Positions 36,324 to 38,756 of a DNA stretch of 43,559 nt are shown here, piece by piece. This DNA comes from Clostridiaceae bacterium (GTDB taxonomy: Bacteria; Bacillota; Clostridia; UBA1212; DUPL01). Under the pieces are notes generated by a model. It searched no databases. It was given only the letters and a program-made list of their open reading frames with translations, and was not told the DNA's origin. The stretch lies in NCBI GenBank assembly GCA_012522035.1, contig JAAYLF010000063.1:1-43559 (forward strand). The letters are read 5' to 3'. Within the stretch, counting starts at the first letter, position 1. Each line of letters opens with the position of its first letter. The position numbers and the translations under genes were made by a program.

Positions 36324-37009
36324 GAATAACTCACCTTGTTTACAAGATGCAGCCTTGTGTCCAAATAACCTGTCAATAGAGCATTGTTAAGCAGTCTGAA
36401 CTCCTCTTCATTTACTGCAAGAATTATGGTGTAAAAACCATTGCTGTCCTTCAAATACTCCCATTTGCCATTTACATTCGTACACAATATATCGTAAATC
36501 CTTATCTTGCTTATTACTTCCTGGTATGAACCGTCCGGATATCTTGCAATTATGTCCACATAATTTCCCTTCATAGCAAGTTCTCCCACCAAGCTTTTAA
36601 CCTTGAATTCCTTAAGCCTTCTGGTAATCGAAAATTCTTCCTCATTCTGTCCAACAAAATCAAAAGACATTTGCTGTCCCTTAACAACCGTATACTTTAG
36701 CATTTTGTCTTTTATCAAATCAAAATTATAAACAGCATTCTCAACCATCAAATTTGCAGGCACTTTAACAACCTCAAAATTATCTCTGTTCACTTCCGTT
36801 ATTATCACTCCTGCCATAAGAGGAGTCTCTCCTTTGTACGTCAGCACATCTACAAACGCACCCGCACTTTGTCTGTACATCTCCTCGTACACAAGGGATG
36901 TTTTCTTCTTAACCTGAGGTATAATCAAAAAGGTGTACAGCGCCGCCAAAAGAGCAAGAGACGCAAGATAAATCGCCACCGTAAAGAAAGCACCCTTCTT
37001 CACAACCAT
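36320..37009 (-). CDS. CpaB/RcpC-like (SAF-domain-like) bitopic protein
   Basis: N-terminal TM (AFFTVAIYLASLALLAALYTFLII). The periplasmic-side part, with VVKVPANLMVENAV...VVKGQQMSFDFV, resembles the CpaB beta-clip region. ATGA overlap with the ATPase gene. Confidence 0.5.
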   Translation of the reverse strand: MVVKKGAFFTVAIYLASLALLAALYTFLIIPQVKKKTSLVYEEMYRQSAGAFVDVLTYKGETPLMAGVIITEVNRDNFEVVKVPANLMVENAVYNFDLIKDKMLKYTVVKGQQMSFDFVGQNEEEFSITRRLKEFKVKSLVGELAMKGNYVDIIARYPDGSYQEVISKIRIYDILCTNVNGKWEYLKDSNGFYTIILAVNEEEFRLLNNALLTGYLDTRLHLVNKVSYS

Positions 37010-38580
37010 CAACCTCCTACCTGCATCAGCTTTGAAATAACGGTATCGTAACTTGACGCAATGTCGCTTACATCATCATTAACATAATAGCTTCCCTTGA
37101 CATTTCTCGAGACAAGTCTTCTTCTGTCATACGGTATTGCACCCAAATACTTGCTTCTCCCCACAATCATGGAAATACCAGACTCAGGCAGACTTACCTT
37201 GTCTATGTAATCCCAGGCCACATACCTTAAGTTTTCCTCCGATATGTATCCCTTTTGCGACAACCTGTTATAATATGCACAGCACAATTGTATGTCGTCA
37301 ACATTGGCATAGGGAACTGCAATTACATAATCTGAATTAAGCATCATTGCATTCTTTAAAGGTGACAATAGTTTTTCTTCCGCCGCTACTATGACTAAAT
37401 CAAAATTGTTGTATGCCCAGTTGCAGAAGTTCCTTACATCCCTGACATCATGGATTTCCAGTTCGTCAAAAACGCCACTTCGCGCAATGTATAAGTTGCT
37501 GTTTGTATCAAAGTTCTTCAAAAGCCCGCGTCTGACCCATTCTCTTGCACTTCTTCCAAGATACGTCTTCATCCCGTAATTCAGGCTGAAGATATCGCTT
37601 TCCGACACAAAGGACGCATTTGACGTGCCGGATAGATAATACGCTATAATATTGTCCGTTTCTGCAAGCTCGAATATGGCTGTCTTGTAGTTGAAGAAAG
37701 CTGCCGCCACATACGCAAGCTCGCAGGCAAAACCCATATTGCCATCCACGGTAACTACAATTCTCTTGTACCTGTTTACATACCTCACCGTATTAATTGT
37801 TGCCTTCACAGAAACAGATTCCTTTTTTCCACCCTCTTTAAGAAGTGTAATTTCCCTCTTAAGTTCTTTCACACCAGAATGTCTGTCTTCAGGCTCAAAC
37901 TTCATACATTTCTCAATGACTTTTCCAAGCTTTCCATATTCCTTAAGCCTTTTTCTGTTTACTGGAGGTTTACCGGACATCGAATAAAGAAGCACTGCTC
38001 CAATTGAATAGATGTCACTTGACAGAATGGGTTTGCCATACAAAACTTCCGGCGCCGAATATATTTCAGTACCAAGAACTTTTGTAGTATAGTCCTCAAT
38101 ATTCACAGCGTTGTCTGACATGTGGTACGAAGCTTCAAAGTCGCAAAGCCATATTCTTTCAAAGCTTGCATCCACCAGGATGTTGGACGGCTTCAGATCT
38201 ATAAAAGCGTAGGGACCGTCGGAGTGTTCATGCATTTTTGCAATCGCATCACACAGAAGCAAACCTAAATCCATGCACTGTTTTTCATCAATGCATCCAT
38301 TTTCTTTTATGTAATCTTCCAAGGTAACGGCATCTATCCATTCACGGACAAGATACCTATAATCACCTTCTTCGAAGCTGCATATGAACCTCGGCACAAA
38401 ATCAAAGGAGAATGAACTAACAACTTTAACCTCATTAAAACCGCAAACATCATCACGGTCCCAACGCTTTATGCATACCTCCTTGCTTGTTGCCATATCA
38501 ATCGCTCGTTTAACCTTGTCAGACGATGTATCGTCAATAACCTTAAAGCGCTCACTCAGGCATACTTTCAGCTCACTCAC
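37009..38580 (-). CDS. Fusion of a Hanks-type Ser/Thr kinase-like domain with a P-loop-less ParA/CpaE(TadZ)-like domain
   Basis: Kinase landmarks are VCIKRW, FIDLKPSNIL, LCDFEAS, YSAPEV and SDIYSIGAVL. The C-terminal part has IVVTVDGNMGFACELAYV, FDLVIVAAEE, SDYVIAVPYAN and GAIPYD. I prefer GTG 38580 (SD AGGTGG 6 nt upstream) over the track TTG 38664. Confidence 0.7.
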   Translation of the reverse strand: MSELKVCLSERFKVIDDTSSDKVKRAIDMATSKEVCIKRWDRDDVCGFNEVKVVSSFSFDFVPRFICSFEEGDYRYLVREWIDAVTLEDYIKENGCIDEKQCMDLGLLLCDAIAKMHEHSDGPYAFIDLKPSNILVDASFERIWLCDFEASYHMSDNAVNIEDYTTKVLGTEIYSAPEVLYGKPILSSDIYSIGAVLLYSMSGKPPVNRKRLKEYGKLGKVIEKCMKFEPEDRHSGVKELKREITLLKEGGKKESVSVKATINTVRYVNRYKRIVVTVDGNMGFACELAYVAAAFFNYKTAIFELAETDNIIAYYLSGTSNASFVSESDIFSLNYGMKTYLGRSAREWVRRGLLKNFDTNSNLYIARSGVFDELEIHDVRDVRNFCNWAYNNFDLVIVAAEEKLLSPLKNAMMLNSDYVIAVPYANVDDIQLCCAYYNRLSQKGYISEENLRYVAWDYIDKVSLPESGISMIVGRSKYLGAIPYDRRRLVSRNVKGSYYVNDDVSDIASSYDTVISKLMQVGG

Positions 38581-38616
38581 GAATAACCACCTGCTTCGGT
38601 TTTTAGTTACGAATTT

Positions 38617-38645
38617 ATGATAGCAGGCGTTTTTACCAAAGTCCA
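38617..38645 (-). promoter_or_regulatory. Possible promoter of the Tad-like operon (TGGACT-17-TATCAT)
   Basis: Minus strand TGGACT 38645-38640, 17-nt spacer, TATCAT 38622-38617. It lies downstream of the cwlD terminator and about 37 nt before GTG 38580. Confidence 0.3.
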
Positions 38646-38650
38646 GTTTA

Positions 38651-38756
38651 GGCTTATTTCCCAAAACTGATTTTTAGTTTTGCATTGTATATAAACAAAA
38701 AAACACCGTATCCTGCAAGAAATACGGTGAAAAGGCTTTGGCTTATTTCCCAAAAC
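38651..38756. repeat. Perfect 17-nt direct repeat GGCTTATTTCCCAAAAC (38651-38667 and 38740-38756) bracketing the terminator
   Basis: Read directly. Both copies are followed by similar T-rich tails (TGATTTTTAGTTTT and GCCAGTTTTTGATTTT). Confidence 0.8.
38697..38729 (-). terminator. Rho-independent terminator after cwlD
   Basis: Minus strand CACCGUAU-(10-nt loop)-AUACGGUG, a perfect 8-bp stem, followed by UUUUUUU. Confidence 0.7.

Follow-up and report, generated by a model that had tools for sequence, protein, structure and literature searches.

Many bacteria, gut Firmicutes among them, adhere and colonise by means of Tad pili, and little is established about what triggers pilus assembly in Gram-positive anaerobes. 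Here we describe a gene from an uncultured member of the Clostridia, found in a 43,559-nucleotide (nt) stretch of DNA (Clostridiaceae bacterium, GCA_012522035.1, contig JAAYLF010000063.1; the whole stretch is hereafter called the window), whose product fuses a Hanks-type Ser/Thr protein kinase domain to a ParA/MinD-fold domain that has no P-loop. The gene heads an operon with a divergent secretion ATPase of the TadA/CpaF type, and we discuss the possibility that its product takes the place of TadZ, bringing a kinase to a pilus motor.

CpaE/TadZ, the closest described protein, surrounds the CpaF hexamer as six dimers arranged in a ring; ATP at a deviant Walker A motif drives dimerisation, receiver (REC)-like domains link the dimers, and a C-terminal amphipathic helix of CpaE binds the membrane (PMC13170226). 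The fusion protein shares with TadZ the ParA/MinD fold (3fkq, E = 8.3e-7), a two-domain architecture with a variable N-terminal module, and a gene position at the head of motor and platform genes that include a TadA/CpaF ATPase gene; moreover, the basic amphipathic tail of its canonical relatives (see below) resembles the membrane helix of CpaE and of MinD. In contrast to TadZ, whose K/RGGxGxS/T motif serves ATP binding and dimerisation, the fusion family has no deviant Walker A, and it carries a protein kinase where TadZ has an atypical receiver domain; the window copy also lacks the amphipathic tail and is encoded one gene away from the ATPase gene. Another rearranged TadZ is TadZA of Bdellovibrio bacteriovorus, a fusion of TadZ to TadA without a receiver-like domain (bioRxiv 10.64898/2026.07.08.737194). 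TadZA shows that a TadZ module can be recombined with other domains and that its N-terminal half is dispensable or replaceable, but unlike the proteins described here TadZA is joined to the motor ATPase, keeps a Walker A-like motif and has no kinase.

On the kinase side, PknB/Stk1 and the window protein have their fold and catalytic residues in common. They differ in that the fusion protein is soluble, with neither a transmembrane segment nor a PASTA sensor, and is tethered to a ParA-fold domain; the window subtype, furthermore, has no Gly-rich loop, is non-RD and reads DFE. Threonine phosphorylation (PpkA/Fha1) controls the type VI secretion system, and the ArnC/ArnD kinases act on archaellum regulators. 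Newly described type VII secretion variants have kinase and FHA components (PMC11217815). Common to these systems and to the one proposed here is a Hanks kinase that is encoded with a secretion or filament machine and gates its assembly, whereas the kinase of the known systems is separate, usually membrane-bound and read out by FHA domains, and that of the window is fused to a putative machine-docking domain. BY-kinases (Wzc/Etk/CapB) resemble the fusion protein in their ParA/MinD-class fold and their association with cell-surface assembly, but their activity depends on Walker A, A' and B motifs, all of which are absent from the fusion protein, and they are further marked by a cluster of Tyr residues at the C-terminus, where the window protein has none and ends in ...SKLMQVGG.

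A kinase joined to a TadZ-type protein was not found described in the literature that could be searched, the coverage of which is incomplete, so that an earlier mention elsewhere is possible; this agrees with the initial annotation of the DNA, whose author knew of no such description. Within the same limits, nothing relevant emerged on P-loop-less ParA proteins of this family, and a large survey of type IV filament systems nowhere mentions kinases. What appears to be new is a TadZ-like hub with a kinase as its N-terminal module and no nucleotide site. Public annotation calls the fused proteins 'serine/threonine protein kinase' and some unfused relatives 'MinD-like ATPase' or 'BcsQ', and as the former name says nothing else, the link to pili is invisible in databases. 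A kinase physically tied to a TadZ-like hub in dozens of Clostridia lineages would be a direct control point, and a sizeable unannotated ParA/MinD-fold family that has given up nucleotide binding under strong selection bears on how a ParA-type scaffold works without ATP.

Two folds in one protein

Residues are numbered throughout on the 551 amino acids (aa) of the longest open reading frame (ORF), which starts at a TTG (37009..38664, minus strand); the coding sequence (CDS) is shorter (Table 1). For the N-terminal ~260 aa the initial annotation had listed Hanks-kinase landmarks, and all of the motifs it quoted were located: VCIKRW (K66), FIDLKPSNIL (D156, K158, N161), LCDFEAS (D175), YSAPEV and SDIYSIGAVL. 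Pfam recognises a Pkinase domain (PF00069) at residues 50-257 (E = 4.5e-29; 102 bits against a cut-off of 31.7), and NCBIfam returns partial kinase matches only, for example to lanthionine synthetase kinases and PknB/Stk1. AlphaFold models the full-length protein with a mean predicted local distance difference test score (pLDDT) of 76. Searched against the PDB with Foldseek, it gave more than 2000 matches, all to kinases, with Staphylococcus aureus Stk1/PknB among the best; target-normalised TM-scores are mostly 0.6-0.78, and lower against longer multidomain chains. K66, E78, D156, K158, N161, D175, T194, P205 and E206 are invariant among homologues down to 23% identity, and these residues are kept in 50-64 of 66 aligned kinase segments of the family, several of which are partial.

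Modelled alone, the C-terminal domain reaches a pLDDT of 81.8 and a predicted TM-score (pTM) of 0.83. Its best 50 Foldseek matches in the PDB are all ParA, MinD, Soj, FlhG, FleN or NifH proteins (best E = 1.7e-9), with target-normalised TM-scores that are typically 0.6-0.68 and fall when the chain matched is longer. The PDB chains found by a homologue-based profile are likewise of the ParA/MinD class only: MinD (6riq, E = 1.6e-4) and delta ParA (2oze, E = 0.004), and also MinD 3q9l and ParA 3ea0; its match to Etk is non-significant (E = 0.43). Structure and profile searches thus bear out both folds that had been read from the letters. A scan of the C-terminal half with Pfam and NCBIfam gave no match at E <= 1, and weak AAA_31 matches appear in two relatives. 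Membership of TadZ/CpaE by sequence was dropped on the absence of Pfam and NCBIfam matches to this half, which, judged by sequence and predicted structure, looks generically ParA/MinD-like and forms a separate family, for which no orthology to TadZ can be detected.

Where a deviant Walker A would be expected (VDGNMGFACELAY), the window protein reads VDGNMGFACE, as the initial annotation had noted, and the loss extends to the whole family: the consensus over ~160 aligned members is V-x-x-N-x-x-F-[AG]-x-E-L-A-Y, and KGGxGK[ST] occurs in none of ~160 members examined. N309, F312 and E315 are conserved family-wide (N in 121 of 157, F in place of the Walker A Lys in 134 of 158, E in 152 of 158). 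The switch I/Walker A' D-x-D after strand 2 has two aspartates in the family consensus, each in ~110 of 160 members; the window protein has E332 and A334.

Purifying selection acts on both halves. Compared with the copy on the Clostridia metagenome-assembled genome contig L005, 89% identical across the whole coding part, the ratio of nonsynonymous to synonymous substitution rates (dN/dS) is 0.129 for the kinase domain, 0.69 for the linker and 0.044 for the ParA-like domain. Of the three parts, the P-loop-less domain is under the strongest constraint; it is a functional, repurposed module.

Recurrence of the fusion and two subtypes

The same fusion was found in other genomes, and it is widespread. 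A search of 1.84 billion representative proteins with the profile of the C-terminal domain yielded at least 303 clusters at E <= 0.001, 200 of them at E <= 1e-10. Ten full-length homologues (P0001-P0010), from 90% down to 23% identity, come from independent assemblies with the frame intact. Among 158 members whose N-terminal region was examined, 65 have a kinase and ~40 a different stretch longer than 120 aa, and all others either stand alone or are fragments. Additionally, a pattern scan of metagenome contigs gave 46 loci, 40 with distinct sequences, and the kinase is fused in 32 of these, unfused in five and cut by the contig end in three. The idea that a kinase has replaced the receiver-like half of a TadZ is plausible insofar as other members have a different N-terminal domain or none. 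The different domains (130-250 aa, alternating strands and helices) gave only non-significant, Rossmann-like noise in a PDB profile search and a Pfam scan, and a receiver fold for them is unsupported. In one member, P0214, the P-loop-less domain is accompanied by a GGDEF diguanylate cyclase domain at the C-terminus.

The association with a secretion ATPase is recurrent as well: at the 31 loci with at least 1 kb of downstream sequence, the ATPase gene abuts or overlaps the fusion or ParA-like gene in 25, lies within 1 kb in four and is missing in two. Longer contigs (L002, L007, L008, L009, L012) show the order of fusion or ParA-like gene, T2SSE ATPase and T2SSF-like platform genes, followed, where the contig suffices, by genes for an Flp-like prepilin (71-80 aa), a pair of pseudopilin-like proteins and a SAF/RcpC protein. 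This is the layout of a Tad-type operon, with the ParA-like domain at the place of tadZ. L008 has, at 7371..9855, a 504-aa Pkinase gene directly upstream of a stand-alone gene for a 284-aa P-loop-less ParA-like protein, with a Tad-like operon following; the two genes are adjacent but split, and therefore the split and the fused forms point to the same partnership. The C-terminal ~230 aa of the L008 kinase have no match to the ParA-like profile. Another Tad-like operon, in L007 (GCA_021083345.1, 1..15423), begins with the gene for a ParA-like protein whose N-terminal domain is not a kinase, and directly follows Tcp-type conjugation genes (FtsK/SpoIIIE, TcpC, TcpE, AAA_10, Peptidase_M23), a neighbourhood that suggests that some of these pili are part of conjugative elements.

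Two subtypes can be told apart. Members of the canonical subtype have GxGGxxxVY, YRD and DFG in the kinase, a basic amphipathic C-terminal tail of 19-50 aa (mostly 28-38 aa) and an abutting ATPase gene (stop-to-stop ORF of ~400-450 codons). The derived clade, comprising the window protein, P0001-P0008, L053, L055 and L057, has a glycine-free loop, a non-RD catalytic loop (FID and variants) and DFE or DLE for DFG, has lost the switch-I aspartates of the ParA half and the C-terminal tail, and has one gene of ~230 aa between the fusion gene and an ATPase gene of 550-578 aa. The window protein, which ends a few residues past its last predicted helix, is of the derived subtype, with a more divergent operon.

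The ATPase of the window (gene 3) is nonetheless recognisable. Its PDB matches are to CpaF chains only (7.8e-7), and it is found by NCBIfam TIGR03819, of the TadA family (8.5e-9), and by a hidden Markov model (HMM) of the ATPases of canonical operons (3.9e-11). Its N-terminus, with an extension of ~170 aa (residues 1-170), makes it ~120-150 aa longer than those ATPases; this extension, in which no domain is recognisable, may serve for docking or as a substrate of the kinase.

Proposed role and competing explanations

From the two folds, the lost P-loop, the selective constraint on kinase and ParA-like domain alike, the repeated occurrence of the fusion and the adjacent ATPase genes, and by analogy with TadZ, we infer docking, kinase activity, substrates and a regulatory outcome as follows. 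The fusion protein, soluble and made up of two domains, would belong to a pilus machine of a divergent Tad-like (type IVc-like) kind. Its ParA-fold domain, in the place of TadZ/CpaE and with the conserved N..F[AG].ELAY surface instead of a P-loop, would dock on or around the TadA/CpaF-like ATPase and the platform as an assembly hub. The tethered kinase would phosphorylate itself, at the invariant Thr194 of the activation loop, and/or parts of the machine, with the unusually long N-terminus of the ATPase as one candidate substrate, and this phosphorylation, instead of an ATP-driven dimer cycle of the ParA type, would gate assembly or activity. That the protein is such a TadZ analogue, placing a kinase on the pilus motor and gating a divergent Tad-like machine, is the explanation we favour, with slightly better than even confidence.

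Several observations count against it. The Gly-rich loop is replaced by the glycine-free KVIDDTSSDKVKRAID (DDTSSD), HRD by FID and DFG by DFE, all of which the initial annotation had seen and the alignment with homologues confirms; with the loop, the RD arginine and the DFG glycine all missing, catalysis could be impaired in the window subtype. TadZ profiles of Pfam and NCBIfam do not match the C-terminal half, and the TadZ of E. rectale (3fkq) is only at rank 35 in the fold search. Fusion and ATPase genes are separated by one gene in the window. Neither Pfam nor home-made HMMs give T2SSF support for the 325-aa and 215-aa proteins, in contrast to the T2SSF matches in the platform genes of relatives, and the platform, 230-aa and pilin-like proteins fit a Tad-like machine by position and topology alone. 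No short Flp prepilin with a Gly-containing leader is among the small ORFs at 29800-33200, whereas the canonical operons of L002, L007 and L008 have such leaders. As only the ATPase is anchored by homology and neither an Flp prepilin nor, among the window proteins scanned, a prepilin peptidase was seen, we call the operon divergent Tad-like (type IVc-like), and not a bona fide Tad locus. Finally, FHA or PP2C partner genes appear neither in the Pfam-annotated tables of related loci nor among the window proteins scanned, so that phosphorylation would be read out in another way than in the kinase/FHA schemes known from type VI and some type VII secretion systems.

The altered kinase motifs, together with the missing Walker A, fit a protein that is dead in both halves, a pseudokinase and pseudo-ATPase that would serve as a TadZ-like hub through protein-protein contacts with no phosphate transfer, and the kinase half is visibly decayed in some family members, for example P0128, P0232 and P0249 (P0128 retains just a remnant of it, followed by a low-complexity Asn/Ser-rich region). 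We regard such a scaffold as unlikely, if a serious contender, given that no member of the derived clade, down to ~27% identity, departs from K66, E78, D156, K158, N161, D175 or the Thr of the activation loop, that the kinase is under purifying selection and that its derived changes are conserved as a set, which speaks for a specialised site rather than a decaying one. With the catalytic residues, Thr194 and APE kept in both subtypes, we lean towards a kinase that is atypical, specialised and probably active.

Relatives in which the fusion gene has other company raise a different question. The block upstream of the operon (genes for a 192-aa membrane protein, a 310-aa protein and an Amidase_3 protein, then the fusion gene) is syntenic in L003/L004 and L010. 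Downstream of the fusion, L003/L004 have a gene for an 872-aa SpaA-domain protein (L003 7567..11710) and no TadA-like ATPase; L010 (5637..8778) has truncated remnants of two platform genes and no ATPase; and L011 (645..6001) has a weak SpaA match and a gene with an S26 peptidase-like motif (SSSMEP), again with no TadA-like ATPase. Their fusion genes are intact and keep the catalytic residues. Either pilus genes were recently lost in these loci, or the derived subtype serves other surface structures; since several of the closest relatives keep the fusion with no TadA-like ATPase, coupling to a pilus is not obligatory, and the variable downstream genes of the derived clade lower our confidence in an exclusively pilus-linked role. 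They would suit a general signalling kinase for envelope or surface structures, whose ParA-like domain targets something else and for which the pilus operon is one of several interchangeable contexts. That view is, in our estimate, quite unlikely: the fusion gene is set apart from the amidase gene by a terminator and a promoter-like site of its own, it overlaps the next gene of the operon, and a secretion ATPase is near 29 of the 31 loci of the wider family, in addition to L002, L007, L008, L009 and L012. Least probable is an artefact of assembly or a frameshift that joined two genes, which the initial annotation had named as a danger. L008, with both parts as separate genes, might seem to speak for it, but the frame is continuous in the window, in P0001-P0010, in L005 and in 32 of the 40 metagenomic loci, and we set the artefact aside as next to negligible.

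Beyond the TadZ analogue that we favour, a more speculative reading, to which we give a low probability, is that the ParA/MinD switch has been rewired, its nucleotide-driven dimerisation cycle replaced by a cycle of Ser/Thr phosphorylation by the kinase in cis. The derived subtype of the window, with P-loop and membrane tail lost, may then be a portable, phosphorylation-controlled factor for different surface fibres, Tad-like pili here and SpaA-type proteins in relatives. If this were true, a ParA-fold hub on a pilus motor would be switched by protein phosphate and not by bound ATP.

Gene boundaries and neighbouring genes

The ORF from the TTG (37009-38664), as first annotated, does exist, but its first 28 codons are promoter and leader and not coding. 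L005 has two stop codons within these 28 codons, the remaining frame being intact; a promoter-like TGGACT-17-TATCAT with an extended -10 lies at 38645..38617 (minus strand); and a ribosome-binding site, AGGTGG (38592..38587), precedes the GTG at 38580 by 6 nt. The TTG start was therefore discarded for this GTG, 84 nt further in, giving a protein of 523 aa; the 90% identical homologue P0001 is also 523 aa long. The fusion gene heads its operon, as had been claimed: a terminator lies upstream, the gene has its own promoter-like site, and its stop codon and the start of the next gene share 4 nt. An Rfam search of the leader matched a single small RNA, below threshold (20 bits, where the gathering score is 60). 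A 17-nt direct repeat, GTTTTGGGAAATAAGCC, is present twice, at 38740..38756 just before the amidase terminator and at 38651..38667 just upstream of the operon's -35 (both minus strand). Both copies are nearly conserved in L005, and they could be an operator or other regulatory site.

Table 1. Coordinates of the fusion gene, its parts and the genes of its operon in the window
Feature	Coordinates	Strand	Remarks
Intrinsic terminator after the upstream amidase gene, 5' limit of the fusion gene's operon	38704..38729	-	Upstream of the promoter-like site
Non-coding leader wrongly taken in by the longest-ORF call	38581..38664	-	Holds the promoter-like site and ribosome-binding site
Kinase/ParA-like fusion, corrected CDS	37009..38580	-	523 aa, GTG start; stop codon 37009-37011
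Hanks-type Ser/Thr kinase domain	37831..38571	-	Residues 32-278
Interdomain linker, low confidence	37774..37830	-	Residues 279-297; pLDDT < 50
ParA/MinD-fold domain without P-loop	37012..37773	-	Residues 298-551; no C-terminal amphipathic tail
Would-be deviant Walker A position	37711..37749	-	Reads VDGNMGFACELAY; Phe312 at the place of the Walker A Lys
Gene 2, 230 aa, one N-terminal membrane helix	36320..37012	-	Syntenic homologue in L001, 37% identity
Gene 3, 550-aa secretion ATPase, divergent TadA/CpaF-type motor	34671..36323	-	Walker A GSDMGVGKST
Genes 4 and 5, polytopic membrane proteins, 325 and 215 aa	33068..34696	-	TadB/TadC platform position, hydrophobic segments, L001 synteny
Five small proteins (130-163 aa), one N-terminal hydrophobic helix each	30842..33129	-	Candidate pilin-like subunits; L001 synteny
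Two conserved soluble proteins at the operon end, 208 and 96 aa	29887..30787	-	Homologues in the same order in L001

Gene for gene, the window operon is syntenic with the related locus L001. The product of gene 2 is possibly the counterpart of CpaB/RcpC (SAF), given that it weakly resembles the SAF protein encoded in L008 (E = 8e-4, and E = 0.009 when the set searched held 20 sequences), and genes 4 and 5 are inferred to encode the platform proteins. Home-made HMMs found nothing significant when the 325-aa, 215-aa and 230-aa proteins were tried as T2SSF or SAF homologues of the canonical operons. The pilin-like proteins begin with M-E/D-K (or M-A-G-K, M-H-Q), followed by the hydrophobic helix. 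No A24 prepilin peptidase is among the window proteins scanned, a subset of the window ORFs, and pilin processing may be absent or different in this system. The 208-aa protein has no Pfam match.

Elsewhere in the window, a 785-aa protein encoded upstream of the 192-aa/310-aa/amidase block (41192..43549, minus strand) has a sigma-70 region 4-like match near residue 150 that falls below threshold (19.5 bits against a cut-off of 24.1). An 878-aa protein with a CotH kinase domain (17853..20489, plus strand; E = 1.4e-49) and a 417-aa protein with a sortase domain (3614..4867, minus strand) represent other envelope or spore-surface functions.

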